Shown: positions 496 to 21,534 of the stretch, in pieces | Numbering within the stretch: position 1 is the stretch's first letter | Layout of the letters: each line of letters begins with the position of its first letter | Origin: Vulcanimicrobiota bacterium | GTDB lineage: Bacteria; Vulcanimicrobiota; Vulcanimicrobiia; Vulcanimicrobiales; Vulcanimicrobiaceae | Direction of reading: 5' to 3' | DNA: 64,000 nt | Assembly (NCBI GenBank): GCA_963723515.1 | Contig: CAVRQT010000003.1 | Span: forward strand, 384,001 to 448,000 | Made by a program: the position numbers and the translations under genes | The notes under the pieces: model-generated | Seen by the model: the letters and a program-made list of their open reading frames with translations, nothing else | Databases searched by the model: none | Told to the model about the DNA's origin: nothing

Positions 496-1200
496 GTGGA
501 AGTCGATAGATGCACCGTGGAAGATAAATCGCTAGGCGATAGCACGGTTACATTTCTCTTTACCGACATCGAGCATTCGACGCAACGATGGGAGCGTGAT
601 CGAAGTGCGATGATGTATGCGGTGCAACGACACGATGAGCTGATGCGGGGCGCGATCAATGCCAGCGACGGTCACGTTTTTAAGACCGTCGGTGACGCGT
701 TCTGCGCCGTATTCAAGCGCCCTACAAACGCCGTCGTCGCCGCCATCGAGGCTCAGCGGCGAATTTTCAACGAGGACTTTTCAGCCGTTGGGGGCCTGCG
801 CGTGCGGATGGCGCTGCACAGCGGGACGGCCGATGAGCGCGATGGCGACTACTTCGGCCCGGCCCTCAACCGAGTCGCGCGGATCGTTTCGATCATCTAT
901 GGCGGCCAAGTCGTGCTCTCAGAGGTAACCTGCCTTCAGGTGCGCGATGAATTGCCGGGCGATACGACGCTCGTCAACCTGGGTGCGCACCGGCTCAAAG
1001 ATTTGGCTGAGCCCGAGCGTCTGCATCAACTTGTTGACTCCCGATCTGCCGCACGACTTTCCGACACTACGCTCCCTTGAAAAGCTGCCGAACAATCTTC
1101 CGCTGCAACTCACGCACTTCATCGGCCGCGATGCTGAACTAGCCGCGTTAGAAGCACTTTTAGAAGAATCGCGACTTGTGACACTCGCCGGCACCGCTCC
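496..1200 (+). pseudogene. Truncated class III adenylate/guanylate cyclase + STAND (NB-ARC-like) protein
   Basis: Cyclase motifs TFLFTDIE, KTVGDAF, GDYFGPALNRVAR in ORF 496-1080. Continues by frameshift in ORF 947-1279 (PNNLPLQLTHFIGR...LVTLAGT), then similarity to paralog 18078-20888 stops at the Walker A loop. Confidence 0.8.
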
Positions 1201-1497
1201 GAAGCGAGCTGCGAAAGGAGCCTTTGGTTTCCGAGGTCCGGTGGGCCGTCCATGTCCTGCCATGGGCACTCACTTCTAACGGCGCAACTCGTTTATCTCT
1301 GCATGTCTCAAATCGTCACCGCATCGCTTCCAGCTGGGCGGCCTTCCGTCGCTTCTCGCACTTCCATGAGGCCAAGATGCGATGGCGACTGCGCGGATGA
1401 ATTGCACCGGTGCGGCAAAACGCTGATGAAGCGATGAACAGCATCGTGAGCAGTGCGCGACGGCGCTAAGCGCTTCGAAAAGCTCACCTCGCGCTAT

Positions 1498-4379
1498 CTA
1501 GGGCCAGCCATTTCTGAAGCAAATTCGGCGCAAGCATCCCGATAGTGCAATGATTGCCCCAAAGAGACCAGCTGGTGTACTTGCTAATCGCCTCCCCACC
1601 ATTAAGCAAAGCGATCGCTCCCAGTCGTGCGGATCAACCGAATAGATTGCTAGCGTTCCGTACTGATGCTGTTCCAGGTATCCCGCTACGAGGTACCGGC
1701 CGTCCGCGCTAAAGCTTAAGCTTCGGAAGTGGTGATAGTTGCCGTTGAAGTGGGGTGGTTGTGGCAGCGGCGGCCCTACTCGATGTGCCCGTTTGAAAAT
1801 CGGCAAGCTGAATACCACCGTTTTCCAAACTCTGGAACGCATAGAGTCGAGAATTTGGCGATAAAGCGATTGGACCGCTCGCGGAAATTTCCAACCCAGG
1901 AACGGGATTCAAAGATGGCAAGGAGTATACGCGGAGTCCGGTTCTTGTGCTCTCAGGTTGTACAAAAAGCGTAACCCTCGTCTTTAGAGAACCCGGTTCC
2001 GTCGAAAAACCTACCGAATGCGCGTACCATCTCGGAACAATGTAAATAAGTAACCGGGCCCAACGGGCGCAGTGTCTTCTGTAGGCAGCCAAAAGCAATC
2101 GCCCACGCGAGCTCAGATAATCGGCTGTATCACAATACGCTGAAAAGCTACGGACCCTTCCGCCGCCTTCTTTAAGCGATTCTATATCGTCTGGCGCGAA
2201 AAGACGGTGCCGCACGATCGTGACCCATGCGTCGATGGGTCCCCATGCCGCCTGACAGATCCTCTACGTAATTGCCATCCTTGTCTAGCGAAACCGGCGG
2301 TAGCTGGAAAGAGTGCACTACCCTGGGGCCTGCGCCGATATCCATTAGTTCGACTCTACCGCTCGTGAAATAGATCCTCACCGCATGCACGCCGTCCCCG
2401 ACGTCCTTCAGTCTTACCGAACCGTTCGCGTACGTATCTCCTTCGAGTTGTGTGCGAAAGCGATTCAGTTGATACGCGCGCAGTCGGTTCCGTCCTTGCT
2501 GGATAAGTGTATCTCCACTGAACGCGTAGCTGTCGCCCCACGGCCCACCGTCAAGCACACCAATCATGGGCGAATGAATCTCCGAAAGAGATCGAAGAGC
2601 TGAGCCCCGTGAATGGCTCGACCGTGGCCGATGGTGACTCATTAGTGACGAATTCTTTTACATGATCATCGTAGACTCGGGCGCAAAGAAAACCCGGACC
2701 TGGTAAGAGTACTCCGGTCCCACAAGGCGTCGCTTTCGTTCATCGAAGAGGCTGGGTTAACCGCCCAGCATCAATCGTTCCTCGCGGCCACGAGTAGTTT
2801 AACAAAGTCACGGCGTGCCCGCAGGAAGCGCCCGGGACAGTCTGGACGATCTTGGTTTCCCAAGCAGCAGTTCGTATTAAACCGTCGTCACACCACGAAA
2901 TTTCATTCTTGGTCGAGTTAAATGCTATTCCCTGAGAACAATCCTTGATACAGTCCGCCTTCTTTATCGGAATATCCCGAAGCTGGCGCAACGAGGGCGT
3001 CGCAAAGATGGTCAGCTCAGCAGCGCCGGTGACCTCGTCCTGTTCAAAGCCCCGAGCAACGGTTAAAATACTGAGGACAGCAACGAATCTTCCGTCTGGA
3101 GAAACCGCTAGTCCGCAGGAAGCCCCCGCACCTGTGCTGCAGCAAGTGCCTTAGCGGAGCCAACGCGATATAACGCTGTAAGTCGCCGACTACTTGATGC
3201 GACAGCAAGTAGAGACGCGCTACTGCACGCTAGAGCCCTTACGTGCGCGCCGCGAAGACTCGACATGACGACAAACCGCGATCGGTGCACGATGCTGTAG
3301 ATTGTAACGCCCGACGAATCCGAGGCTGCGAATAGAGGGTTGCGCGGAAAACCACACAGGTGCGTCGCCAGCCGATGTACGGGCGTCCGCGACATGACAC
3401 TGAGATCGTTGGAGTCCAAAGACAATGAAATCTTTCGGCTGCTTACCGTCGGGCGTGACTGTTTCTATAGCGAGCAGCCGCCCATAATCCGAAAAAGCCG
3501 CCAATTCCCAATCCGGCACGGCGACACTGCGCAGAGCGTCAAGAGTGCTCAATTGCGCAAGCATGGCGCCTTCAGTTTCTGGCGTTTCCGCCGTTTTGTA
3601 TGCCTCTGTAGCGAGGATCGCGCCGACGACGCTTCCTTTCCGCTGCATACTCATTGACGCGGTTGCATTTGCCCGTTGGACAACGAGTCAACGATAGGCC
3701 ACCGTCGTCGGCCACACAACCAACCCAATGAAGACGATAGCGAGGACTGCCCGCAATATGAGGACACGGCGACGGCGAATCCGATCTCGCACCTTGAGCT
3801 CATCGAACCGGATGCCCGCGATCGCTGCGACGATTCGTAATCGTACGTCTCTTGCAGGCTCACCATGCGGTCGCGCATCGATGACGAGTGGTTCAGGAAG
3901 CCTTGATCCAGCGTCGTCGATCAGCAACGCGGCTGGAAGCGAGTCGCCCAGTTCACCGGCGACGAGCACGGCGAAAATGCGATCGCTGCCGTTCTTGTTA
4001 CGGAATTGGCGGATCTCCTGATTGACCCAATTCGAAGCAGCTGCGTCCGGCGAACACAGAACGACGAGTGTGCGCGAATCTTCAAGAGCAGCGCGTAGAG
4101 AAGCGCCAAGGTCGGCGGAACCTGAGAGCTCATCGCGGTCGCGAAAGATCGGAATAGGCGCTTGGGGAGCGGCTCTGCTGGTTCGCCACCCAATTTTGCT
4201 GGCAGTCGAAACGTCTCGATGGCACGAGCGAGTCGTTCCGCGGTTCGTTGCTCGTGGTGACTATAACTGAGGAAAGCCCAGTAGCGGGGAGCGCGTCCTA
4301 CAGAGGTTTGCAAAAAGACACCTGACCGATGTTCCTTGGGCGCGTCGCGGCTGTTAGGCGCTTCCCCGTCCTCTATCAC
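1498..4379 (-). CDS. TIR domain + transmembrane helix + WD40-like beta-propeller protein (multiply frameshifted)
   Basis: Joined frames give YWAFLSYSH...PIFRDRDELSGSADLG...LVVLCSPDAAASNWVNQEI (TIR), then RRRRVLILRAVLAIVFIGLVVW (TM), the linker AILATEAYK...TEGAML, and propeller-like strands (AAFSDYGRLLA, IALSPNSRL, LSFSADGRYLVAG). Confidence 0.75.
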
Positions 4380-4851
4380 AGCTATAAAAATCTTCGGAGC
4401 AATTAAAAGAAAATCTTGCCTAGTCTACTGACGCGCACTCCACGTCGCTCGGAAAAGTCGGTTGCGCTGTACCGCGCCGGCTCGGAAACGCCCGATATCG
4501 TGCTGAAAATGCAGACGCAGCGGCGCGGATCCGTTACTCTATGTCACGGCATGTCACGGCTTCTGTTGCACTTCAAAACCGCCGACCCAGGCTCAGTACA
4601 GGGACACACTGACCTTCACCAGCAGGTGGCGCACTACATGTCGTCACGCCCTTTTGCGAACCTGGCGAGCCAAATCGCTCCCCGTCTGAACACGTTCACA
4701 AGATTTACGTCTTAAACGGAATTTCTCTCAAACAAGTTGGCCACAATTCATCAACTAAGGCCCCACCGCCCAGCGCCGGCCTCGCAATAGCATCCACCGT
4801 AATGCCGAGGAAGCCGCCGCGCACGAGACAGTTCACCCTTTTTCGATACCA

Positions 4852-6262
4852 TTAACTCACCGCAACCGGCTGTGTTGCGGTTTTGAAGTCCTCAATGAAG
4901 CGATCCAGTTCTTGCATGTCGATATCAGCCGGTGTGGCATCCTTTATCTCCATTAAGTTGCTTAGCGTCGTTGCGCTTTCGAACGGCTCAATCTTTAACG
5001 ATTAGCTTTAGCAGGCCAGCCCCCGCGCGTTGCCAGTCGTTCGCGAGTACTGCAAGTTCAATACCTGTTGCGAGTAGCCAGTAATCGGGCGTGTCGCCGA
5101 GGCGAGCAACGGCGAAGGTAACCGCTGGCACGATCTTTTTCTTCATCGCGATGGATTCTGGAGAATTTCGAATCGCGAGTAGCGTGGCGAAATTTACGCC
5201 GGGATAGTAGTCGCGCGGATCCGCCATGAAACCGCGCTGGTACGAAGCGATGGCTTCATCGAGAAACGCCATAGCTTGAAACGGGTTCTTGCCTTTTGTT
5301 TCCTTATAACGGTCTTTCCAAATGCGTCCTAAAAGTCCGCAGGTCTCGGGGTCATCCCCGTGATCTTTTACTATCGCTTCTAGCAGTCGTTGCGCTTTGT
5401 CGCGATCACCGGGTTGATTGCGTCGGTTGAGGACAAGCGCATATTGTTGGCGCAATGTGACCGAGGTGTCCATGAGCCACTGCGGCAGGCGTTCGGCTAA
5501 CAACACAGCCGCGTCCCAAGCTTGCAGATCTCGGTAGCTGAGCAACACATCGACAAATAGTTCGGCGTTGTTTTGCTGCGGAGCCCCCAGTTCAGTTTCA
5601 ATTGCCTTGATGAGCTCGAGGGCATGGTCGCTGTCTTTGCGAGCCGCTTGCAGGCGTATGCGCACACCGTCGACGTAACGGCTTCGGTCACGAAAGTTTT
5701 CCGTAACTTCGTGCGGCAAGTGGATTCCCGGAAACTCTGGAAGAAGCTGGAACAGCGGGCTGTCGCTCGATTCGGGATTCGCCAACGCGTATTCAACTCT
5801 GTCTTGAAGTGTTTGCTGCAATTGTGCAGCGCTCTCGGCGCTTAATTTTCCGTTGTCTAATTGATAGGGGATCGAGCTGATCATGGATATGTCGAAGGGG
5901 AGTATTCCTTGATTCCCCCAGATGATGATCGTGGACCGCGGCCGCGCGGCGTGCCGAATTCCCAGCTCGTAGAAGACGTTCGGGTTTGGGACCGTGACAT
6001 CGACGATCGTAACATCAGCTAGCAGCAAGCGCTCGAACATCGGCACATGAATAATCCCGCCACCGCGCTCCTCGTCCGCGCGGATGCATTCCAGCTTAAG
6101 GCCATCGACAGCCGGCTTAATTCCACGCGTGTAAATATCGTCGAAATCGATTTCCAACGTGCGCGTTGCATCTGGCTTCTTGCCGAAGGGCATCGCCACG
6201 AAGACCAAAGGCGCGCACGGGTTCGGCGCTTGCGGCGAAATGCGTTGCTTATGGGTAGTCAC
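4852..6262 (-). CDS. Nucleoside 2-deoxyribosyltransferase-like (DRHyd/ASK-type) domain + DUF4071/MAP3K TRAF-binding TPR protein
   Basis: FVAMPFG...RADE...ADVTIVDVTVPNPNVFYELGIRHA; LLSYRD...QQYALVLNRRN...ETCGLLGRIWKD...YYPGVNFATL. C-terminus continues after a frameshift near 4990 (FESATTLSNL...AVS*). Start estimated at GTG 6262. Confidence 0.85.
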
Positions 6263-6366
6263 GGGATCGACTCCGTTCAGTTGTACCGCAATGCGGTACG
6301 GTCTTAGTAGCGCTTTATCGGAAGCGGGGGATGTCCTCGTCGTTGGGCTACTAAATATACTTTCGT

Positions 6367-8024
6367 ATGGCCGCACGTGCACCGGTGATGGAAACGGGGC
6401 CGTTCCCGCTTGTGGTCGGCGTGACCGGACACCGCGACCTGCGAGAAGCGGATCTCCCTCCGCTGCGTGAGGCGGTGTGCGCGGTGCTCAATACGTACCG
6501 GACAAATCTACCGCGCACGGCAATTACGATTCTATCGTCGCTCGCTGACGGGGCGGATCGTTTGGTCGCGCGCGTAGCGCTTGAGCGGGGATGCAGCCTT
6601 GCGGCTGCGCTGCCGATGCCGCGCGAGGAATTTAAAACGACGCTTAAAGACGACGCTGCCCGCGCCGAGTTTGATTGGTTGCTCGCCCAATGTACGGCGC
6701 AGTTTGTAGCACCACCGCTGAACCGCGATATTGATTGGCGGCAGCGTCGGTCGATCTTCGCTACGCGAATTGCGCCGCGTACATAGTCATGCGATCCGCC
6801 GAACAAATCGCACTGTGGGACGGAAGGCGCACCGATGGAATCGCCGGCACAGCTGCCAGCGTGCGGTTCATGCTCGAAGGAGTTCCCGAGCCGATTGTCT
6901 CTCGGCGCAGCGACTTAGATCCCGAACCGATTGGCCCAATTATTCAAATCGTTACACCGCGAGAGGCTAATCCTTCGCCCGACGGTGTGCCTTACAGCAT
7001 CAAGCGCCTGTATCCGCCGTTCCTCATTTCGCAAGTTGATAACGAGGATGTCTTTGCGGATCTACTTCACCACCTTGATAACTATAATAACGACGCGATC
7101 GAATGCGCGCACGTGCGCAAGATGCGCCACTTTTCTCTTGAAGAGCTGCAAAACATCACCGAGGTGCTCTCGGGCTACTACCAGGGCTGGACGCAACGCG
7201 TACTGCTCTCGGCGTTGGCATTTTGTCTTGGCAACCGTCTTTTTCGACCTATATGTTACGGGGTTGCTTCAATCGGCATTGGTGTTACTGAGCTATTTCG
7301 GCTTAACGCTTGGCGCCGTTATCGTTTATGCGATTTCTCAACGGCGCGGCTATCAAGATCGCTATCAAGATTATCGTTCACTCGGAGAGGCCTTGCGCGT
7401 GGCCGCTTTTTGGCATCGAGCTGGCGTCGCCGCATCGCCCGCTGACGTGGTTGCGCACCTTCAGCGGGGAGAAGTGAGTTGGCTGCCGACTGCGATTCGG
7501 GCGCTCGTTGAACCATGGCTCCCAAATATTCCGAGGCCTTCAGTGAACGCGGCCGGGTTGCGAGATGTCTACGAGCAATCGGTCGTTGACCAAGCGGCTT
7601 GGTATGCTCGGCGAATCAAGGAAAAGCGACAGTTTAGCGCGCACGCCGCCGTTATAGCCTTCTAGCAGTCGCCGCGGCCGAAGCGATCATTCCGCTGCAG
7701 CTGCTGCCGGGGATGCATGGATGGCGCGAGGGGATATTTCTGGTAAGCGGCGTTTGCGCGATACTCGCCGCACTCATTAGCTACTATGCCGAAAAGCGGG
7801 GGTGGCTCGAGGAAATGAAGGAGTACATGCGGGTCGGCGCGCTGTTCGGTCGTGCACGCGAGCAACTGTCAACGCTCTTGTCTGAGCCTTCCTTAAGCGA
7901 AGCGACACTACTACGGATCCGCCGCATGCTCGAAGAACTCGGCCGCGAAGCTCTGCGCGAAAATATAGCGTGGCGCAATTTGCATCGCCAGCGTCCGATT
8001 AAGTTACCGCATATGCACGTATAA
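6367..8024 (+). CDS. SLOG domain + SLATT/DUF4231-like transmembrane effector protein (copy 1, frameshifted)
   Basis: SLOG motifs VVGVTGHR, SSLADGADRL, AALPMP, ALWDG...GT. TM pairs followed by YQDRYQDYRSLGEALR and LGREALRENIAW. Spread over ORFs 6367, 6735, 6931 and 7713. Confidence 0.75.
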
Positions 8025-8073
8025 TTTGCGGTGGAATGCAGGTGATCGAGTATCTATACTCACGGAATAAAGC

Positions 8074-8684
8074 ATGAATAAGAGAGGGGCTGGGATCGTA
8101 ATGGCGGATAAATCGGACCGCGCGATCGTAAATTCTCGGAACGTAATTCTATTCTCTTTGGCTTGGTTAATCGCTCTGCTCGCGTTCGGCGCGCAAACAT
8201 CGCTTCCGGCGACCGCTAGCGCCATACGCCTCGATGACGTGGTCGATATGACGCTCGCAGGTGGCTTGCGGCTTTCGCGCTGGGGTCTTTGCGCTCGAGG
8301 ACTTTTCGTTGGCGTCGTAGCAGCGAGCGACGAAAATTCATTCCTGGGCGTCATCTATATTAAGCGAAGCGCTGTAAGAATCATAACGGTGCGCGGGCGC
8401 GAACGGAGCAGCGATCGCTCTGATTGCGCGGCGTACCAATCCGTGTCCGACCTCGTCAGGGGCGAAACCTACCGTTGCCGTTGGAAATAGCCGACCGGAA
8501 AGGTAACGTGTATGTGGGCGCGACTCCTTTGCGCCTTAACTCCGGAACTTTTGATGTCGCCGGCGCGTGCCAATACCGCCGCGAACTTGGTGGACCAACG
8601 TGTCGGGAGAAGATTAGCGCTCATCGTCCCGTCATTTTGCGGTCCGAGGACATCATTCTCATTACGGGCTACAGGAGTAAATGA
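8074..8684 (+). CDS. Hypothetical secreted protein (probably frameshifted)
   Basis: Signal-peptide-like VILFSLAWLIALLAFGA in ORF 8074-8490 and an overlapping downstream ORF 8424-8684. No recognised domain. Confidence 0.35.
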
Positions 8685-8774
8685 AATCCGTTATTGATAT
8701 GTGGCTTTGTATTTATGCCGAGGCACTGTTAAAGCAGCGCAAGGCTTGTGCAGCGTAGGCGGAACGCATCGCAT

Positions 8775-9331
8775 CTATTGGTTTCGTTTTAGGCTGGCTC
8801 TTTTCAACCAAAGGTAAAGCGACGACGCGATCATCACGAGTCCCGTGAGGAGCCCGTACCCGGTCAGGCCGAGCAATAGCGTCGCAGGCATCGGTAGATC
8901 GCCAGTCCAGAGGCGTACGAGTAACGTCACCATGCCCGCAAGTACGGAAACGCTGCCAACCGTCGTGATTGCCGCGGAGCCGTCAGTGTTCGCACACCGT
9001 CCAGCGATCATTTCAAGCAGCCCTTTGCATATGAACCACCACATTAATGCAACTAAGTAACTGCCTGGCAGCCAGCATCAGCGCGGCAGACGTCAGGGTG
9101 GACAAAACCGAGTAGCAGCAACACATTTCTCGCGCGACCTCGTGACACGTACGCGGTCCAAGCTGAAAAGGCAAATTCCGTAAGTGCATACGCACAGCAC
9201 AGCAGCGGAAGAACAAAAATGAGGCCAACGAGCGCTGGCAAGATTGCGGCCGAAAACGCCAGCGCGAAGATGCTGCGAGGTAGAAGGAATGCCTGCCAAG
9301 TGCTGAACCATTTAGGCTGCAGAAGGCCCAA
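8775..9331 (-). CDS. Hypothetical multi-pass membrane protein (frameshifted)
   Basis: Hydrophobic ORFs 9053-9331 and 8775-9044 in series, just downstream of the TIR-MCE gene. Confidence 0.4.
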
Positions 9332-9360
9332 GAGGCTAACTGGCCTGTTGCTTTATTTGC

Positions 9361-10194
9361 TTACAGTCCCGTGCGGCTCTGCGCAAAGTACGGCAATGTG
9401 ATGTGGCAGCTGGCGGCTGATGAACTTCCGTAGAGAGGTTGTCCGATGTGAACTATCGGGGAGTTAAGCACACCATCGTGTGCAATTGTAAATCGTGCGT
9501 CTTCGGGAATGTCGATGTCAGGCTTAAGCTGCATGATCACCTCCACTCATCGTTTAACTTGTCTCGGCATGACGTATGCCGGCTCTGTGGGAGCAGAATA
9601 ACGTTACCAACTTGGCCCACCTCTACGCCATTGTATTGAACTGGCGTATCTGCGCTGACGCTTCCCGCATCTGGAAACGAGACGCCGATCGCGTACATGC
9701 CTACTCTTGCGTTGAAATCAATGAGCGAGCGAAACGCAAAGAACAAAGCGACGAGAACCAGCGGCGTGGCCCACAATGCAATGCGCCGCGTCATCCTGCG
9801 TCGCCGCGCCAGACGTTGGACGGTATCGCGAACCTCGGCGGCCACGTTCCCCTGCGGCATAAGCACTGAAAAAGGGCGTAACGAGCTAGGAAGCTCGTCA
9901 AACGGCACAGGTTGTAACATCACCGGAATAATGCGCCCTTGAGGCTTGCGCCATCGCTCTTCGGCAAAACGGAGTTCGGTTCGGGAAGCTCCCTCGTTGC
10001 ACTGACTCGGGGGTGACTAAGAAGATCATCATGTCGCTCTTATAGAGCGATTCTCTGATCCACTTGTTGAAATCGTCGCCCGCTATAATGTTGTCTTTGG
10101 CGAAGAGCACGTCATTCCCGGCGGACTTGAGCGTTGCTGCAATCGTTTCGGCATCTCGCTGATGTGCGTTCGGATAGGACAGGAAGATTCGCAT
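9361..10194 (-). CDS. TIR domain + TM helix + MCE/MlaD domain fusion (two frameshifts)
   Basis: MRIFLSY...IIAGDDF...IFLVTPESV...TELRFAEERW...RIIPVML (TIR); RRIALWATPLVLVALFFAF (TM); YAIGVSFPDAGSVSADTPVQYNGVEVGQVGNV...VEVIMQL...IPEDARFTI..DGVL (MCE pattern). Confidence 0.75.
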
Positions 10195-10242
10195 CGTACC
10201 TCAATCCGCAGATTCTGGCCGCAAGGGTTTTGGAGGACTTAC

Positions 10243-10505
10243 ATGAGCAATCGCCGCGTCGCTTTCGTCGCGGTCGTCATCGGCTTCCTTGCTCTTTCAA
10301 TGTTCAATTTGCTGGTCACGCGCGCGGTCGTTTCGGCCCGACAACCCTTATGCAAACTCTCCTGGTTCTATCTTGGGTGCTAGTTTCCGCGACGAACCTC
10401 GAGCAGGTTAAAGCTAACGTTTTGGCGCGTGGGATACTCGCGGAAGCGGTGCTGGTTATTGTCGCACTGCTATATTGCTGCTGCTGGCCCTTCGAAGAAA
10501 TGTAA
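10243..10505 (+). CDS. Small membrane protein (frameshifted)
   Basis: GGAGG RBS before ATG 10243; hydrophobic segments VAFVAVVIGFLAL and ILAEAVLVIVALL. Confidence 0.45.
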
Positions 10506-10599
10506 GGGACAGAAGTGAGATGGTGTGCCAGTTCAGCGTCGCTTTGCGTGTCAGCAGGCAAATTTCTGCAGACGGCGTCGCCAAAAAATGTCGCCTTTC

Positions 10600-12245
10600 T
10601 TAGTGCGGAACACTCAGGGGAGAATTCTCGTTGGCCGAGGAGCCAGTCCGCATGTTCGACTAACGCTTCACGGGCAAGGTTCCGAATGATGTCCGTCTCC
10701 GCTTGGCTGCGCGCCGTTACGCCATCGAGCAGGCGCGCGTATTGTGCGAACAGCAGGTACATGCGCTCGTAACGTTTGGCGTTTTTCGCAAATCCTCTCT
10801 TGGCGGCGTAGTTGGAAAGGAAGAGCGCAATTAGGCCGCCGATGGCGAGCGGTGCGGTGGCGTTGGGATCTTGCAACGAAGTCCCCGCGTGCGCCAAATG
10901 CCAACGCTGCATGTCAGCTGAAATCACGGTTGGCCATAGCCAGCCGGTCCGGGCTTCCACGTCGTGCGCATGCTGCGGCAAGATGGTGCCCAGCGTCCCC
11001 GCTAAAGCAACCAGCGCACCGACAGCGGCGCCCGCGACGTTGAGAAAACGGGCGTGCCCTGCTTGCGTTTTTGTTGCATTTTGGTAGTAGTCTCGTTGGC
11101 CAGTCACCCACTCTCGGGCTTCTCTGGAACAATCCGCTGTAGACTGAGGAGTACTTTGAGGTGCGGTTACCTCGATGCTTCGCAATGCCCTCCGGATCCA
11201 TTGCAGTTCGCTTTTCTGCATCGAGAGATAAGCTGTCTGAGCGAAATCAGACGGCAGCCCGGCGCACGCTGTTGCATACGTTGTGCGTAAGGCTTCGCTT
11301 AACGCGCGGTAATCTTGATAGCGGTTCTCGTAGTCGAACCGCCGTGCGAACGCAAATGCACCGTAGGCGAGGACGAGCGTCGCGATTTTCACGTCGTTGA
11401 CAAATGGAATATTGCTTAAGAATTGTGCCGCCGCGGCAAAGAATGCGCAAATATATACCAGCAAGACCAAAGCCAACGTGCGAGACTGGAGTTGTCCAGC
11501 GGCACGGCCCAACCGCTCTTGCATCGATCCGCTTTGCCGGGCGATGTCGAGATTGCATTTTCGCAAGTGGCGTAGCGCGCTGTTAAAGTCTCGCGCGGCG
11601 GTTTTGTCGCCTTCGAATCGCGGCGGGAATAGGCGCCTGATCGTAAAAGCGTCAGGCAGCGATTGCCCCGTTTCGGATGGCGTAAGGATTTCAAACGTCG
11701 GCGCGATATCGGGCTGTGACGGGCGGCGAGGTCGGCATCAACGCCGGTGGCCTCGCCCGTTTTTCGCATCGTAACGACGTCTCGCCGGCGCCGCCGTCCA
11801 ACGTGGCGCCGTCCCAAAAGATTGCGGCGATATGGCTAAAAGTAGCTAAGCACAGTGCGACCGCGTTGTCGCTCTGCGAAGGGTTTTCGGAGGTTCCGAC
11901 CACGATTGTTGTGCTACTTTGCTGCAACGCGGCACGAAAACGTGCCAGATGATCGGGCGAGAAGCGTTGTTCGTAGTCTGCTTGGGGCGCGGGCAAGAGT
12001 GCGATGACAGGAACGCGGGCCGCAAAGGCGCGCTCCGCGGCAATGATTTCCGCGCCCGGGCAAAGTGCACTCATGACGGCAAGCGGCAGACCTTTGTGCG
12101 CGAAAACGAGCTGATCTAAAAGAACGCCGAACGCGCTTGAAAGCTTCGGTTCGTCGGAGGGCGCGATCTGGGTGTATCCGGTTAGCCCGATGAGCAGTGG
12201 TATGCCCGGCGCGCTCCGCGCTTCGCTTGTTTCAAGCTGACCCAT
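10600..12245 (-). CDS. SLOG domain + SLATT/DUF4231-like transmembrane protein (copy 2, frameshifted)
   Basis: LIGLTGYT, SALCPGAEII, ALLPAP, IFWDG...GGAG; then YENRYQDYRALSEALR and LAREALVEHADW. Colinear with 6367-8024. Stop reconstructed at 10600 (...SPLSVPH*). Confidence 0.75.
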
Positions 12246-12629
12246 ATGGGCCCGTTCTAGCGGGTCGCCGCAACGCCTCGACAAATGACGTTTCTGCCCA
12301 GGCCCCGCCAGCGGTCTGACCTAATGTGTCGCAGCTCTGCGGCATTGAATATAGGTATTGTTTCGCCTTTGCGAACCAGACGACGACGTCTCAAATTCAA
12401 GCGGTGCACGACCTCTTCTCGCGCTGGCATTATGTCCACAATGCGCGCGACGGTGGCGGACGGTCACAAGCGGGAACAATTCTCGCTAACACGCCATCGA
12501 CTGTTTTCGTTGTACTGCATCGTTTCGTACCGCGCAATGATCGGGTGCACGCAGAGGGTTGAGCCCTGTGGAATCCGAACAACCTAGGATGAAACTCGCA
12601 GTGCGTTCGCACCGCGGGCCATTTGGCTT

Positions 12630-14141
12630 ATGGAGCCGGTAAGAGTGCCACGGTTATTCCTTTCGTATGCCCGAAAAGATGATGCACCCTTTGAAGAGCG
12701 GCGCGGCAGTGGGTTCGTTACTGTGTTGCTTAAGCATCTCGAAGAGGCACTTGACGATCTTGGGCCGCCGATTCCGGAAATCTTCCGCGATATGCGCGAG
12801 ATCGATGAGCCAGCCAGTTTGACCCGGTGCTACGTGAGGAATTAGCCCGAGCCGACTATTTGCTGGTTGTGCTCTCAAACAACTGGTTGCATCGACCATG
12901 GTGCCGGGACGAGTTAGAGTTGTTTGCATCCAGATGGCATCAGGGCGACCGTGCGCTCAAGGAACGCATCATCGTGATCGGCCGGCGCTTCATCGATCCT
13001 GAAAAGCGACCCGCGCTTCTCCAGGGACAAAGCGGATATCTTTTTTGCGCCTTCGACCGCACGACGAACGACTATGTGGAGTTCTACAAGCGCGGAGAGG
13101 TTTGTGATAAGCGATATCACGACGAAATAGAAGCTTGCCAAAAAACTTCAAAAGCTCGCGCAGACTGAGGCGCCGCTAGAGAGCGGCGCTCGCACCAAAC
13201 CAACGCGCAAAGTTTTCGTTTCAAAGCCAGCGGGCGATATGGAAGCTGCCTATGCCCGCGTTGTAAACGAGCTCGAAGCGCAGGTTTGTCTCGGAGGTGA
13301 TTCCGCCGCGTGATGCCGAGATTCCAAAGCAGCGAGCGGAAGCGTGGATTGACAGCGCGTTGGCCAAAGCGGAAATTGCAATTCATTTAATCGGAGAGAA
13401 ACCGGGATGGACGCCGGAGAGCGGGACCCCCATTGTCTGCACTTCTTCAACTTGCCCGCTCAGCGACACATGCGCAAAAATCCGATCTCCGCCGCATCAT
13501 ATGGGCGCCGAAGAAAGTCACCGCGGACGGCAACGCAGACACGCATGGTGATTTGCGCGAGCCGGTCTCGGTGGTGTCGCGCTTTTGTGAGAAATTGGAC
13601 ACTGACACCATCGATGGCAGCGAGCTTGCCAAGTTTCTTGAGTTCGTTACGCTGTATCTTCGGGAGCACCGCCCCGCCCCGGAATCCGGTACCGATGTGG
13701 CGCTCGCTGCGAACTCACGAGTGTACCTGCGTTACTGGGATGAAGACACCGATTATGCGCTGGAACTCAAACGAGCGCTCGAGCAGCGTCAAATTGCTAC
13801 CGAGATGTCGGTACTCGACGGCAACCAACCGGCTTGAGCTTGAAGAGTTTAACCGCCGTTTGCTCGATCAATCGGATGCGGCGCTTGTTTGTTGGGCGAA
13901 TGTCGACGAGCTGCGCGTACGCAGCCAAATGATGCAATGGCGCGACACCCGCAAGGTACGTGCCTTGGTTGCCGGTCCGCCCGACCGTAACCCAAAGAAA
14001 GTGCTCGTCGCGAGCCCTCCAAAGAACGACGTCGACGTTGTGCTCGATTTGCGCAATAGCGCTAAGGTCACGCCGGACGCACTTGACCCGCTGATCAAGA
14101 AAACGCGAACGCCGCACAACGCCTCCGCAACCAAACCATGA
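12630..14141 (+). CDS. Multi-domain TIR protein (TIR plus two further TIR/DUF4062-like alpha/beta domains; frameshifted)
   Basis: RLFLSYARKDD...IFRDMREI...LLVVLSNNWLHRPWCRDEL; second module KVFVSKPAGDM...IAIHLIGE; third module RVYLRYWDED...SDAALVCW. Stop overlaps next ATG (ATGA 14138-14141). Confidence 0.7.
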
Positions 14142-16413
14142 CCGTGGCGTTCAGCCCGCAGCTTTCAGCGGAGCGTCCGTTTCCGGGGCTGCGCGCCTTC
14201 ACATTTGAGGACCGCGAATTCTTTTTCGGACGGGAACAACAGATCTTCGCGCTTTATCGGTTATTAGACTTAAGCCGTTTTATCGCTGTCGTCGGCGGGT
14301 CTGGCAGCGGCAAATCATCACTGGTGCGCGCGGGCCTTGAGCCATTAGTGGAACAAGAGAGTGAGGCCGATGGCGGAAGGCCATGGATGCTTGCGACCAT
14401 GCATCCGGGAGAAGCGCCCATTTCGTCGTTGAGTGATGCCTTGGCATCACTACATGGAAAAATAGCAGGCGCTGCCGACACGGCGGACCACGCGATCCGT
14501 CGCAGTCGGATCGAGCATGCGCTTCGGCGCTCCAGCAGGGGCTTATTGCAACTGATTCGCGATACCGCTGCTTTCGAGAAAAGCGCTTACTGCTCGTGGT
14601 CGATCAGTTTGAGGAGCTCTTCCGCTATGCGTCACCTGGATTGAGAGCCAAGAATTCGATTTCTGAGTTCTCATGGCGCGACGAAGCGACCCAGTTCGTG
14701 CATCTCTTGCTCGAGGCGTCCGCGGACCGGGAGACATGGGGCTACCGTGCTCATCACCATGCGTTCCGATTTTATTGGAGACTGCGCACTCTATTATCGG
14801 CTCCCTGAAGCCGTCAGCGAAGCTCAGTTCCTCGTCCCATCGTTGACCCGCGGCCAGCGCGAAGACGTCATTCGCCAACCCATTGCCAAGGCCGGCGCTG
14901 AGATTGAACCAAGTTTAGTCCAAACATTGCTAAACGAGGCAGGTACCGAGATCGATCAGCTTCCCGTTCTGCAGCATTGCCTTGCGCGTCTGTGGGATCG
15001 AGCGAAATCTCGTGCCACCGAGCAGCGTCCGGCGCTGAACATTTCCGATTATGAAACCGTGGGACGCCTCCAAGACGCCCTTTCGCAACATGCAAACGAG
15101 ATTATGGCGTCACTGCCGGGCCTCGAGCAGGTCGTCGAGTCAGTGTTCCGCGCGCTGAGTGAGGTCGACAAAGAGGGGCGCGCCACGCGTAGAGCCATCC
15201 CGTTTGAGCAGTTGCTCGCGGAAACAGGCGCGTCTCGCGCGGATTTGATTCGAGTGCTCGATCGCTTTCGTGCTGACGATTGTTCATTTATCGTCCCGTC
15301 AACCTCAGCCGTACCCGTGCTGCATGATGCGACGCAAATCGATGTGGGACACGAAGCATTGCTACGCCGGTGGGACCGCATGACCGGTGATGACACGGCA
15401 AGGGGATGGCTTTCGGCCGAAGATGATGATGCCGGCTGGTACCGCATGTTGCTGCGATTTGCTAAAGGCGCTTAATGGGCGAGCCGAATCGTGTAACGTT
15501 GCCCGCTCAGCAAGTAGAAGCATGGTGGGCGCGTTGGAATGCACGCCCGCGTACCAGCGCTTGGGCGGATCGCTATGGCGGCGGTTTCGAGCGCGTCCAA
15601 GAACTGTTGAAAAACAGCCGGCAAGCGGTCGAAGAGCAACGCAGACGCGCACGTACCGCTCGAGCGCGGCGTATGCTAGTTGTCGTAGCAGCGATGTTCG
15701 TCGTGATTGTGCTTGCGCTCGGCTCCTGGCGTGTTCTTTACGTAGCGGACCAGACGCACAAGGAAGCAGTCGACGTGGCGGACACTGAGAATAACGCTCA
15801 GGTTTCCATGCAGTTCAGCGGGGTTCTGCGCTCGGTCGTACGCATTCGTGCAGGTTCCCAAGTTGGGACGGGAGTCGTGGTCGGACAACGAGCTTCCTCG
15901 TCATACATTTTAACCGCCGCTCACGTGATTGGTGCTGAGAGAAGTGTGCGAGTGTTTTTGCACGCTTTGTATGGTCAGGGCGACGGGATTGCAGCGCGCG
16001 TTATAAAGGCGAGCCCCCAAACCGATTTGGCCGTGCTTTCCATCCGGCGGACGAACGTGCCGGCGATTGCGCTTGGCCGGGTGAGCGAAGGGCTGCTGGT
16101 CTACGTGGTAGGTTTTCCGCAGTCTGAACGCGCCTTTGAGATGACAGGTATGCACCGTTCAACGACTACAACGCTTGGTGTGGTTGAGATCAATCACACC
16201 ACGGGGCGACTTAACGTTGAGGAGGCCTACAGCGGGCAGGCGCCGTTTCTGTACGGGGGCAATAGCGAAGGCCTCATCCTGGACCGTTATACATTGGGCC
16301 TTGTTGGAATCATCCATCGCGCGGTCAGTCGCGCGGGTAACGGCTACTCCTTTGCTCCCGTACCCATCAACACCATAACGCAATTCTTGCTACCGATTTT
16401 ACGCTCGTCTTAG
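14138..16413 (+). CDS. nSTAND1 P-loop NTPase + TM + C-terminal trypsin-like serine protease (frameshifted)
   Basis: PFPGLRAF...FFGRE, Walker A GGSGSGKSS, Walker B VDQFEELF, ITMRSDF, LPVLQHCL, HEALLRRW; TM MLVVVAAMFVVIVLALG; trypsin motifs GTGVVV, LTAAHV, DLAVL, GNSEG. Confidence 0.8.
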
Positions 16414-16510
16414 TGAGGCGTATGTGGCGCATCCGTTATCTGCTCATTCCAAAAATGACACGCTGCCACCGCGGCACCGCCGGGCAATCTGCCAACGAGA
16501 GGCGATATTA

Positions 16511-17563
16511 ATGCGGCTCTGGCTTTTTGTTATAGCAGCATTCGCATGTTTATGTTGTCTGACGGTCCTGTCTGCACGAACGTCAAGCGAATCGCCGCTA
16601 CTGCGACTCACCGATGCTAACGTTGTTGCATCCGGAGATGGCACGACGTGGTTCTCGGCGGTAATCGGGAACAATCCGGGCGCCGTAGTCGTCGGTGAAC
16701 TCGGACCGGCGGGGCCCGTGAACGTATTCGCGTTGTCTTCCGCTGATCAAGGAGTGCCAACAGCCGGGAACGTCGACGCGCACGGCGTTTTCTGGTTTCA
16801 GGGCAACGGAGGCAGATACATAGGCGAAATTTCTTCAGCGGGCATTCTCAAAAAGTATGTGCTGTCGCAGGTTAGCGTTGGCGACGTTAACGCAGCGCCA
16901 AACGGGAGCGTCTGGTTCACGGATCAACAAGCCGGTGGGGTTGGACTCTTGGACGCACGTGGTGCGTCATTTCGATGGATCCTCAAGGGCACTCGGGTCC
17001 ACAAAACTGCGGTCGCAGCCGATAGTTCGTTGTGGTTCACCGGGGTTGACACGGATACGGTTAACCATCTGCTGTCCAGTGGAAACAATACGCAATACAA
17101 GGTGAGAGCTGAAGGCGATCGGCCCTTTGAACCATCGGAAATAGCAGTTGCAAAAGATGGTGCGGTATGGTTTAGCGCACAAGAATTCTTGAATAAAGTT
17201 GGGACGATCACACCTTCCGGGTCGCTGCGAACTTTCTGGATACGGCCCTCTGACTTTGGAGCGTTCGCGCTTGCGCCGTACGACGGCTCGGGAGTGTGGT
17301 TTGCACAGAGCCGTCCTAGCCGCGTCGGGACAATTGACGCCGCAGGGCACGCTCAGGCACTGGATGTACCGATCAAAGGCCGTGAGGTAGAACCCACGAG
17401 CATCGCGACTGACCGCCTCGGCGACGTGTGGTTGTGCGACTCGAGTTCGAAGGGCGTCGGCTTTTGGCGACTGGACACTCGGCGACACTTCACGGAATTC
17501 ACCAGCGTGCCGTCGGCCAAGCAACCGCAGATCATCACCATAGTGGTAAGGGAAGTGCGTTGA
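16511..17563 (+). CDS. Secreted Vgb (virginiamycin B lyase)-like beta-propeller protein
   Basis: Signal peptide MRLWLFVIAAFACL; repeated xxDGxVWFx blades (NGSVWFTD, DSSLWFTG, DGAVWFSA, GSGVWFAQ). Confidence 0.75.
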   Translation: MRLWLFVIAAFACLCCLTVLSARTSSESPLLRLTDANVVASGDGTTWFSAVIGNNPGAVVVGELGPAGPVNVFALSSADQGVPTAGNVDAHGVFWFQGNGGRYIGEISSAGILKKYVLSQVSVGDVNAAPNGSVWFTDQQAGGVGLLDARGASFRWILKGTRVHKTAVAADSSLWFTGVDTDTVNHLLSSGNNTQYKVRAEGDRPFEPSEIAVAKDGAVWFSAQEFLNKVGTITPSGSLRTFWIRPSDFGAFALAPYDGSGVWFAQSRPSRVGTIDAAGHAQALDVPIKGREVEPTSIATDRLGDVWLCDSSSKGVGFWRLDTRRHFTEFTSVPSAKQPQIITIVVREVR

Positions 17564-17915: not shown

Positions 17916-17991
17916 TCCGGATTAGCTCAGTTGGTAGAGCAGCTGACTGTTAATCAGCGGGTCGTTGGTTCGAGTCCAACATCCGGAGCCA
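17916..17991 (+). tRNA. tRNA-Asn (GTT)
   Basis: 76 nt; acceptor stem TCCGGAT/ATCCGGA, D-arm AGCTCAGTTGGTAGAGC, anticodon arm GCTGA-CTGTTAA-TCAGC, T-loop GTTCGAGTC, encoded CCA. Confidence 0.97.
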
Positions 17992-21103: not shown

Positions 21104-21193
21104 CTGACTGTTAATCAGCGGGTCGTTGAACCGTCATCCTGAGCGGAGCGGCGAAGCCGCGATGTCGAAGGGCGAGTCCAACATCCGCAGCCA
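21104..21193 (+). repeat. Duplicated 3' half of tRNA-Asn (attR-like) interrupted by a REP element
   Basis: CTGACTGTTAATCAGCGGGTCGTTG identical to the tRNA; about 44 nt REP-like insert replaces GTT; then CGAGTCCAACATCCGCAGCCA. Confidence 0.85.
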
Positions 21194-21384
21194 AATTAAT
21201 AGAAGAGCCACCAAAACGGTGGCTCTTTTGCGTCTGTCACCCTGAGCTTGTCGAAGGGCGTCATCCTGAGCGGAGGGGCGAAGCCGCGATGTCGAAGGGC
21301 GAGTCCAACATCCGGAGCCAAATTAATAGAAGAGCCACCAAAACGGTGGCTCTTTTTCGTTGTCACCCTGAGCTTGTCGAAGGG
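21132..21384 (+). repeat. Tandem duplication of a ~127-bp unit (REP + tRNA 3' end + terminator + REP)
   Basis: Units 21132-21258 and 21259-21384 are nearly identical; each has CGAGTCCAACATCCGnAGCCA, AAGAGCCACCAAAACGGTGGCTCTT and TGTCACCCTGAGCTTGTCGAAGGG. Confidence 0.85.
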
Positions 21385-21534
21385 CGAAGGGCGAGTCGAA
21401 CATGCGGAGCCCTCATACGAGAAAAACCGCAAACAAGGGTTTTTCTCGTTTCATTTCCCGGCCGACTTCAAGCGCTCGTCGCTCTCATGTCAAGCTATAC
21501 CCTGCGCGCCCTCCTTAAGGTTTTAGCGCCTTAC

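Follow-up and report, generated by a model that had tools for sequence, protein, structure and literature searches.

A candidate conflict island beside tRNA-Asn in a Vulcanimicrobiota genome reads as three neighbouring Thoeris-like modules

The described systems that come closest to the locus analysed here are types of Thoeris, as presented in the accessible part of one source (10.64898/2025.12.03.692087). In type VII, a TIR protein (ThsB) is combined with the SLATT effector ThsH, and in type VIII a TIR protein is combined with a CMP (cytidine monophosphate)-hydrolase-TPR protein; both types defend and respond to cyclic ADP-ribose (cADPR), and type VIII sometimes shares an operon with type VII. 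Type III combines several TIRs with a SLOG effector, and in type I the SLOG domain binds 3'cADPR. Furthermore, assemblies centred on TPR proteins, with TIR, YpsA-SLOG, patatin, transmembrane (TM) and caspase partners, are credited to Burroughs & Aravind 2020 in the accessible part of 10.1101/2023.05.26.542521; nSTAND1 counter-invader systems with TIR or trypsin effectors come from Kaur et al. 2021 (PMC8195603, likewise accessible in part), and SLATT was predicted to be a membrane effector regulated by ADP-ribose derivatives (PMC9503650). In the ParA-TM (PCTM) system, as far as the available part of 10.64898/2026.10.19.760177 describes it, an upstream effector is followed by an NTPase with a TM segment and a periplasmic domain and by a downstream extracellular protein. 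The locus that we compare with these systems is an island at positions 1498-17563 of a stretch of 64,000 nucleotides from a Vulcanimicrobiota bacterium (GCA_963723515.1, contig CAVRQT010000003.1, positions 384,001 to 448,000 of the forward strand). This whole stretch is called the window below, and all positions are given in its coordinates.

We scanned the 107 stop-to-stop open reading frames (ORFs) of at least 80 aa at positions 1-20885 with Pfam. Every domain that had been named in a previous reading of the letters only (below, the sequence-only reading) was found: three TIR genes, two proteins with SLOG and several TM segments, a deoxyribosyltransferase-like TPR protein, an nSTAND1-protease and a propeller. 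We regard these domain identities as established, with SLATT as a putative assignment. When the whole assembly of 2,114,483 bases (2.11 Mb) was searched for TIR_2 and DUF4231, all three TIR_2 matches and both DUF4231 matches, the latter below the cut-off, were located inside the island. All TIR and SLATT genes of the genome fall in about 10 kb, a clustering that far exceeds chance. The GC content of the island is, as previously claimed, rather low (0.565, compared with a mean of 0.5955 and an sd of 0.0104 over 16-kb windows), and it is equally low in just 1.6% of 1,027 such windows.

The island reads as three neighbouring modules rather than as a single machine. Module A consists of SLOG-SLATT1, divergent from a TPR-S gene that is followed by TIR1 (TIR-TM-propeller). 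Module B is SLOG-SLATT2 followed by TIR2 (TIR-TM-MlaD), and module C is TIR3 followed by an nSTAND1-TM-trypsin gene and a propeller gene. On balance, we lean towards the interpretation that the region beside tRNA-Asn is a conflict (defence-type) island acquired by horizontal transfer, in which three Thoeris-like modules share one logic. In such a scheme, a TIR protein would cleave NAD+ to give a messenger derived from ADP-ribose; this messenger would be read by the YpsA-like SLOG domain of the SLOG-SLATT protein, which would then open or assemble a SLATT helix bundle that breaches the membrane. In module A, the messenger would be read additionally by the ThsI-like TPR-S/DNPH1-like protein. In module C, the membrane-anchored STAND NTPase would be a sensor that switches on the soluble TIR3, and this pair is frequently linked to SLOG-SLATT and patatin in relatives. 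The messenger, the sensing roles and the formation of a pore are the parts that we infer. The signalling logic and most of the parts are already in print (Thoeris VII and VIII, and the predictions of the Aravind laboratory). The sequence-only reading did not recognise a named system, which has to be corrected, since TIR plus SLATT corresponds to type VII and TIR plus CMP-hydrolase-TPR to type VIII in the accessible part of 10.64898/2025.12.03.692087, and assemblies of TPR-S, TIR, YpsA-SLOG and patatin are those credited to Burroughs & Aravind 2020 in 10.1101/2023.05.26.542521, again by its accessible part.

The two SLOG-SLATT genes are found at 6367..8024 on the forward strand (SLOG-SLATT1, divergent from TPR-S) and at 10600..12284 on the reverse strand (SLOG-SLATT2, about 400 nt upstream of TIR2 on the same strand and divergent from TIR3). 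A profile of the family had only chance-level matches among PDB sequences, so that a fold search was required. The AlphaFold2 model of a homologue from a related genome (G037) has a predicted local distance difference test (pLDDT) of 85.9 and a predicted template modelling score (pTM) of 0.83, and it contains an N-terminal Rossmannoid domain. Its top PDB match by Foldseek is YpsA (2nx2, E 2.3e-4, target-normalised TM score 0.65), followed by DprA, the Moco carrier protein, LOG, PpnN, ShosA and the N-terminal region of TRPM channels. Judged by this predicted structure, we take it as established that the N-terminal half has a YpsA-like Rossmannoid SLOG fold. The C-terminal half is a bundle of long helices with two to three hydrophobic segments. 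With the profile, 13,354 representatives of clusters at 50% identity are recovered at E <= 0.001, and 4,050 when the limit is set to E <= 1e-30; the atlas clusters carry the label "hypothetical protein". Some relatives have SLOG-SLATT within ORFs of 827-1329 aa (L052 6234-10220, L053 7216-10725 and L051 7132-9612).

The family models for these proteins and for known systems speak less clearly, and several of their scores weigh against our interpretation. YAcAr matches SLOG-SLATT1 with an E value of 1.8e-5 (ORF 6355-6783) and 24.9 bits, and the cut-off of 28.2 of this SLOG sequence model is not passed; the same holds for DNA_processg_A (19-20 bits, cut-off 29.6). DUF4231 is below the threshold in SLOG-SLATT1 and has an E value of 0.0017 in SLOG-SLATT2 (ORF 10319-11737). 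With this model, the copies in the window score 19-22 bits and three homologues 34.6, 27.2 and 27.7 (cut-off 24.7). In SLOG-SLATT2, SLATT_3 is also below its cut-off (25.2 and 26.3 bits, respectively), and the NCBIfam models SLATT_1 and SLATT_3 give 19-27 bits where 41 and 45 are required. In the NCBIfam scan no model passed its cut-off: the type III Thoeris model ThcB4 had matches of 18.3 and 21.3 bits (cut-off 220), and no Thoeris_type3 model matched the SLOG-SLATT proteins. PADLOC, a check that the sequence-only reading had asked for, was run on 30 proteins and gave no system-level match, just generic TIR, phospholipase and protease models; its ThsB1 model matched with an E value of only 3.4e-4.

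Next, we consider the gene neighbourhoods of SLOG-SLATT in other genomes. In a separate sample of 61 genomes (G036 included), TIR_2 had 83 matches (1.4 per genome) and was found within 3 kb of SLOG-SLATT at 21 of the 32 loci and within 5 kb at 23 of them, where the chance expectation is well under 1%. At least 13 of 24 SLOG-SLATT loci without TIR3 have another TIR gene within 1.7 kb, and the locus L046 adds one more; the partners there are short TIR-TM, multi-TM-TIR and TIR-NB-ARC-TPR proteins. Outside the phylum, a TIR gene lies within 2.5 kb at 12 of 25 SLOG-SLATT loci, which by record title belong to Planctomycetota, Gemmatimonadales, Acidobacteriota, Chloroflexota, Armatimonadota, Deltaproteobacteria and others. 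This neighbourhood across phyla is established, and the co-occurrence in related genomes that the sequence-only reading had proposed to check was found. To judge from gene order, these counts support a functional link between TIR and SLOG-SLATT genes. On the other hand, nine of the 32 loci, some of them on short contigs, have no TIR gene within 5 kb, which weakens this interpretation.

These loci without TIR are also among the points for a different explanation, in which the TIRs are terminal effectors that deplete NAD+, as in TIR-STAND/Avs, SPARTA and CBASS-TIR, and SLOG-SLATT is independent or senses another nucleotide. We think this rather improbable. The neighbourhood of TIR and SLOG-SLATT recurs with four unrelated TIR architectures and in several phyla, which is hard to explain without functional coupling, and the SLOG domain of ThsA is a known receptor of a cADPR isomer, as far as the accessible part of the source goes. 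It has to be said that the TIRs of Avs were discarded as effectors in the accessible part of the Yirmiya preprint, and that TIR3 is found in the usual setting of effector TIRs, as its strict pairing with a STAND NTPase (44 of 45 loci, see below) indicates; furthermore, its best fold matches include the SPARTA TIR-APAZ NADases.

In the class as a whole (201 genomes, this genome, G000, among them, and G145 and G202 included), SLOG-SLATT was found in 80 genomes, TIR3 in 39, nSTAND1 in 42 and TPR-S in 12; note that the genomes are related, so that none of the class counts are independent. The pairing of TIR3 with nSTAND1 is established: nSTAND1 is located within 300 nt of TIR3 at 44 of 45 TIR3 loci, and TIR3 is found at 44 of 49 nSTAND1 loci. 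SLOG-SLATT is present in 34 of the 39 genomes with TIR3 compared with 46 of the 162 others, and it is found within 3 kb of TIR3 at 11 of the 45 loci and within 10.5 kb at 16. At the remaining 29 TIR3-nSTAND1 loci, SLOG-SLATT was not found at a distance of up to 10.5 kb; module C can therefore function in its absence and its TIR perhaps only depletes NAD+, which again counts against the shared logic that we favour. In the intact cassettes of one family of the class (L009, L010, L011, L020 and L021), a patatin gene is divergent from a series of SLOG-SLATT, TIR3, nSTAND1-WD40 and RHS/DUF6531 genes. TPR-S adjoins SLOG-SLATT in this genome and in G051 and G161, it adjoins TIR3 in G175, and it is alone in G011. 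A protein that we call unk483 (about 430-483 aa, one hydrophobic segment, no Pfam family) accompanies patatin and SLOG-SLATT in relatives (L011 4532-5980, L020 5077-, L021 14110-, L022 13995-, L038 9608-); the window is without it.

The same neighbourhoods bear on the idea of one multi-component machine, which was the proposal of the sequence-only reading. In its explicit form, a single integrated multi-receptor system would have its three TIRs feed one pool of messenger, which in turn would gate the TPR-S enzyme and both SLOG-SLATT pores. The TIR and SLATT genes of the genome all lie within about 10 kb, the effectors of types VII and VIII answer to one molecule and are sometimes encoded in one operon (10.64898/2025.12.03.692087, accessible part), and the genome G175 strings together TPR-S, TIR3 (195 nt away) and nSTAND1, with SLOG-SLATT at a distance of 8.6 kb. 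Nevertheless, we see a single system as distinctly unlikely, and the claim is not supported in its original form: the parts are separable in relatives, where TIR3 and nSTAND1 stand without SLOG-SLATT nearby (29 of 45), SLOG-SLATT is found with just one TIR or with other types of TIR, and TPR-S occurs alone. Moreover, the two SLOG-SLATT copies are diverged paralogues (35% and 44.5% identity to the same homologue), which suggests separate specificities.

TIR3 (12588..14141, forward strand), the first gene of module C, encodes a protein of about 500 aa that is soluble and consists of a TIR domain at the N-terminus (TIR_2 in the ORF 12809-13165, forward strand) and two further alpha/beta domains. 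The AlphaFold2 model of the G037 homologue (pLDDT 79.8, pTM 0.42) has three alpha/beta domains, the first of which is the TIR; its fold matches include the SPARTA TIR-APAZ NADases, RUN1, RPS4 and RPP1. The TIR3 profile matches 36 TIR chains of the PDB at E <= 0.1. For the third domain, TIR_2 matches below the threshold (22-27 bits) are found in relatives. A comparison of the three domains by profile was weak (E 0.001-0.017, probability 3-21%), and we consider the TIR_2 matches to be the better hint as to the possible nature of domain 3. The Glu of the motif WCRDE (E91) is invariant in the family and aligned with the Glu of PdTIR, Cat1 and AtTIR; we take the Glu in this column to be the catalytic one of TIRs. 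The sequence-only reading had the catalytic Glu retained in all three TIRs. This is confirmed for TIR3 and also for TIR1, in which the Glu of WVNQE is in the same column (hhalign probability 97%, E 1.1e-10) and retained in at least 90% of 37 aligned sequences; in TIR2, the motif TEL directly follows a frameshift and the Glu was assigned by eye from its spacing alone.

The second gene of module C (14138..16413, forward strand) encodes an nSTAND1 NTPase with one TM helix and a trypsin-like domain that is predicted to be outside the membrane. nSTAND1 (PF20703) matches in three pieces at 14087-15472 on the forward strand (E 2.7e-27 and 9.3e-45), compared with 1e-84 to 1e-87 in intact homologues, and Trypsin_2 matches at 15466-16410 on the same strand (E 1.5e-15), in an ORF with a TM helix at residues 70-88. 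Since the start of this ORF continues the conserved C-terminal helices of nSTAND1 and then enters the TM helix, we read the pieces as a single nSTAND1-TM-trypsin gene. We examined 17 nSTAND1 homologues, each of which has one TM helix after the NTPase (15 of them at residues 430-640), so that the WD40 or trypsin part is predicted to be outside the cell. We also predicted a complex of nSTAND1 (residues 1-450) with TIR3. The median interaction prediction score from aligned errors (ipSAE) was 0.59, compared with 0.00 for the best of three controls; at least 93% of contacts agree between runs, and the pLDDT of the partner is at least 79. The mark used in this test is reached by 116 of 157 solved complexes and two of 215 mismatched pairs, and just 18 of the 157 solved complexes, plus both mismatches, reach it at 0.60 or less, so that the prediction gives weak support. 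The module closes with an intact beta-propeller of the Vgb_lyase family (16424..17563, forward strand; Vgb_lyase 3.4e-34 in the ORF 16379-17560), which we read as secreted or anchored because of its N-terminal hydrophobic segment (residues 32-50).

Compared with the nSTAND1 systems in the accessible part of PMC8195603, module C shares the central nSTAND1 NTPase, the TIR or trypsin effector domains and repeats such as WD40, but it differs in the TM helix that follows the NTPase and in a TIR3 partner without bDLD3, EAD10 or another Pfam family beyond TIR; in the TIR3 homologues, Pfam families were limited to TIR_2 and TIR (E up to 0.001), and a bDLD3 or EAD10 adaptor was not found. Gene order and topology match those of PCTM (10.64898/2026.10.19.760177, accessible part), except that the NTPase is a STAND instead of a ParA protein and the effector is a TIR.

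In module B, TIR2 (9364..10194, reverse strand) combines a TIR domain (TIR_2 4.5e-13, at 9901-10200), one TM helix and an MlaD/MCE domain (MlaD 7.5e-8, at 9540-10016, both on the reverse strand). A word-based search found no longer relative of TIR2-MlaD among 997 candidates, so that the TIR-TM-MlaD architecture is seen in the window alone. As in Thoeris VII, a TIR gene stands beside the gene of a membrane protein with a putative SLATT-type helical domain (SLOG-SLATT2 and TIR2 in the window, and 21 of 32 loci in the sample), and the predicted product of the TIR would act on a membrane effector. In contrast to ThsH, which is described as SLATT only, with pockets between protomers, in the accessible part of the type VII source, the effector here has a YpsA-like SLOG domain (about 200 aa) at its N-terminus. 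The partner TIRs also differ from ThsB in that they are mostly membrane-anchored with outside domains, or STAND-linked.

In module A, the intact TPR-S gene (4988..6382, reverse strand) matches MAP3K_TRAF_bd (1.3e-38) and TPR-S (6.7e-25) in the ORF 4991-6487. Its C-terminal TPR region is homologous to the regulatory region of ASK1 (8qgy 2.3e-17, 5ulm 3e-16). The N-terminal domain matches DNPH1 at residues 101-149 with E values of 0.04-0.09 and retains the YELG motif; the assignment as deoxyribosyltransferase-like is weak because of these E values. The protein also matches the PADLOC TIR-effector model PDLC00733 (1.8e-7), and it is a candidate for a ThsI-like effector or sensor. TIR1 (1498..4379, reverse strand) begins about 600 nt downstream of TPR-S on the same strand and encodes an N-terminal TIR domain (TIR_2 2.9e-8, ThsB_TIR 2.4e-8, ORF 3691-4260, reverse strand), one TM helix (VLILRAVLAIVFIGLVVW) and an outside region of about 750 aa with propeller-like repeats. 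Relatives of TIR1 are 620-1175 aa in length and have the architectures TIR-WD40, TIR-TPR and TIR-unknown. When the outside domain was compared with the 200 other genomes of the class, a single match emerged, a weak one with the WD40 section of an nSTAND1 protein (E 1.5e-6); phmmer found no match of the TIR1 fragment in the PDB at E <= 0.001.

Both features of Thoeris VIII, an effector that is CMP-hydrolase- or deoxyribosyltransferase-like with TPRs and an adjacent TIR gene, are present in module A, the first with a weak N-terminal assignment. As in Thoeris VIII and BcTir-BcTpr, the TPR-S protein has a DNPH1-like N-terminus (YELG) and a TPR region of TPR-S/ASK1 type, and its gene immediately precedes a TIR gene on the same strand. 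The differences from the partial description of type VIII are that the place of the small soluble ThsB is taken by a TIR-TM-propeller protein of about 930 aa, that a SLOG-SLATT gene is divergently attached and that the similarity to DNPH1 is weak. The island shares TIR, SLOG-SLATT and TM partners with the TPR-S assemblies of Burroughs & Aravind 2020 as given in the accessible part of 10.1101/2023.05.26.542521, and patatin is found in relatives. With Thoeris I it shares a TIR and an effector that carries a SLOG domain, in contrast to which the output here is a SLATT membrane domain and the island contains no SIR2 (zero Pfam matches among the 107 ORFs).

Among 26 TIR proteins that are neighbours of SLOG-SLATT, 15 have an N-terminal TIR, one TM helix and a C-terminal domain, four have multiple TM helices and seven are TIR-STAND-TPR proteins, in agreement with the previous claim of membrane-anchored TIRs with different outside domains. 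One of the 15 has leucine-rich repeats (LRRs) and another one a lectin domain similar to 3-keto-disaccharide hydrolase. The protein with the LRRs (L107 4466-6805, record title Planctomycetota) is encoded beside SLOG-SLATT and is the nearest bacterial look-alike of the domain content of Toll-like receptors that we found.

With such partners, the same biochemistry could have an extracellular or envelope input and serve as an outside-in switch for cell death or dormancy instead of a cytoplasmic phage sensor. Candidate inputs are damage to the cell envelope, adsorption or injection by phages, contact-dependent attack and kin signals. The predicted sensor domains beyond the TM helix (propeller, MlaD, WD40, trypsin and LRR) point in this direction, and so do the N-terminal hydrophobic segments encoded by the downstream genes (RHS/DUF6531 and Vgb-like propellers) and the parallel design of PCTM, which is suggested to sense periplasmic perturbation in the accessible part of 10.64898/2026.10.19.760177. 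However, the TM and topology calls, and with them the anchoring, are predictions from a hydropathy scan alone, and the Thoeris TIRs characterised to date sense phage inside the cell according to the accessible part of PMC12578639. We consider this alternative possible but on the unlikely side. Somewhat less probable still is a true outside-in TIR pathway in many phyla, in which an extracytoplasmic sensor would be joined by a single TM helix to a cytoplasmic TIR whose ADP-ribose-derived product gates a dedicated SLOG-SLATT channel; with a similarly small chance, its sensor would be a propeller, LRRs, MlaD or the WD40 repeats of a membrane-anchored STAND. If it were true, the topology of a Toll-like receptor would be joined to a TRPM2-like output of "SLOG domain + ion channel" in at least 4,050 clusters at 50% identity, a family for which our searches turned up no experimental work.

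In the open-access literature, a text-string search found no paper on a fused SLOG-SLATT effector as a common partner of TIRs, and our searches there found no description of the prevalence of TIR-TM-outside-domain partners or of the TM-anchored nSTAND1 clade. The 29 predicted effector types of 10.64898/2025.12.03.692087, which was accessible in part, may well include SLOG-SLATT. If our interpretation of the island as Thoeris-like modules is true, fused SLOG-SLATT proteins are among the commoner effectors of TIR signals in uncultured soil phyla, and their partners add membrane-anchored TIRs and a membrane-anchored STAND to Thoeris, so far a matter of cytoplasmic sensing by the small soluble ThsB. 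In that case, receptor-type TIR signalling and SLOG-gated channels such as TRPM2 would have a bacterial counterpart that can be tested directly. Since most of the local copies are out of frame, the finding is worth less for this genome itself.

About 20 frameshifts break six of the nine genes of the island, and ORFs of at least 200 aa cover 0.51 of it, compared with a median of 0.86 and a 1st percentile of 0.51 in the genome. We mapped the shifts by frameshift-aware alignment to intact homologues of relatives. SLOG-SLATT1 has four (near 6767, 7246, 7290 and 7664; 35% identity to the G011 homologue over 508 codons) and SLOG-SLATT2 at least three (near 11782, 11720 and 10621; 44.5% identity to the G011 homologue over 515 codons), the last of which deletes the native stop, so that the ORF extends to 10316. 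There are five in TIR3 (near 12811, 13133, 13278, 13441 and 13838; 47% identity to the G037 homologue) and four in nSTAND1 (near 14580, 14740, 15461 and 15495; 62% identity to the G037 homologue over 489 codons). TIR2 has at least two. TIR1 is broken into about eight frame pieces; at least one shift is mapped, at 4153 in the TIR domain, and since its homologues align just to residue 267, the frames beyond cannot be mapped and the figure of about seven frame changes comes from the tiling of ORFs. The sequence-only reading was right that there are frameshifts and understated their extent.

We think that the frameshifts are probably indel errors of the assembly (consensus). There is no in-frame stop at any aligned codon of four genes (35-62% identity to homologues), several shifts are at homopolymers (A6 at 13133, C5 at 13441 and T5 at 7246), and ordinary genes elsewhere in the assembly are split as well, namely those for PEP carboxykinase, CopD, a UvrD-like helicase and penicillin amidase, the last in three frames (loci L016 1445-3202 on contig C3, L018 11647-13193 on C2, L019 10683-12937 on C3 and L015 3-868). 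Genuine decay of the genes has a lower, still considerable probability, and it is about as conceivable that the whole island is a decayed pseudogene remnant without function in this organism. Such a remnant would fit the concentration of the roughly 20 shifts in the TIR, SLATT and NTPase genes, the intact metK and ahcY genes next door, the small genome of 2.11 Mb and the truncated paralogue that flanks the island. In particular, TPR-S, the trypsin ORF and the Vgb ORF (3.6 kb) are free of shifts despite an equally high density of homopolymers, an uneven spread that simple random error does not predict and that speaks against our interpretation. With most genes out of frame, the island may do nothing in this genome, a further point against it. 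Nevertheless, the damage consists of indels only, whereas decay should add nonsense changes.

The right border of the island is a tRNA-Asn gene (17916..17991, forward strand, ARAGORN). Its 3' half recurs 3.2 kb downstream (21104-21128, 25 nt, 100% identical), with partial copies of 27 nt that are 89-93% identical at 21173 (21173-21199) and 21300, and a tandem repeat of 127 nt (21132-21438) is found after the copy. At the left border there is a truncated and frameshifted copy of a cyclase-STAND gene (496..1279, forward strand; Guanylate_cyc 9.6e-10), a paralogue of the gene at 18078-20888; a direct repeat of 96 nt (619-714 and 18252-18347) is 71% identical. Two copies of a class III cyclase-STAND-TPR gene, the first broken and the second intact, thus flank the island; cyclase-STAND proteins are candidates for conflict systems in their own right. 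We rejected the idea that the island is an element bounded by an integrase and att sites, since no integrase domain was found and the tRNA-Asn repeats enclose the neighbouring cyclase-STAND gene instead. This arrangement around the cyclase-NB-ARC-TPR gene (18078-20888) resembles the att sites of a small integrated element. In the Pfam scan no SMODS/CD-NTase domain was found in the island, and class III cyclase domains are confined to the flanking cyclase-STAND genes.

Two smaller features lie between the modules. A small ORF (8074..8490, forward strand, 138 aa), whose product has a hydrophobic segment at the N-terminus, has no family match in Pfam, PADLOC or NCBIfam, and the TM-rich reading frames downstream of TIR2 (8716..9360, reverse strand; hydrophobic segments) have no match to a Pfam family. 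Vgb-like propellers were also seen beside five related loci (including L013, L035, L058 and L059); since these genomes contain many members of the family, we rejected this as a sign of linkage. An IS605 OrfB/TnpB-like gene (OrfB_IS605 and a Cas12f1-like TNB, in two frames; L013 12847-14089) adjoins the TIR3-nSTAND1 pair of G010. In the genome analysed here, patatin is encoded by a single gene at a distance of 165 kb from the island (C3:220614-221294). A second defence-type region of this genome is also located on contig C3 (L019 5937-19204); it contains a Z1 domain, a Swt1-like HEPN, an AAA_16 protein and PD-(D/E)XK with a UvrD helicase, as well as a C-5 cytosine methylase with Vsr and a restriction enzyme of NgoMIV type.

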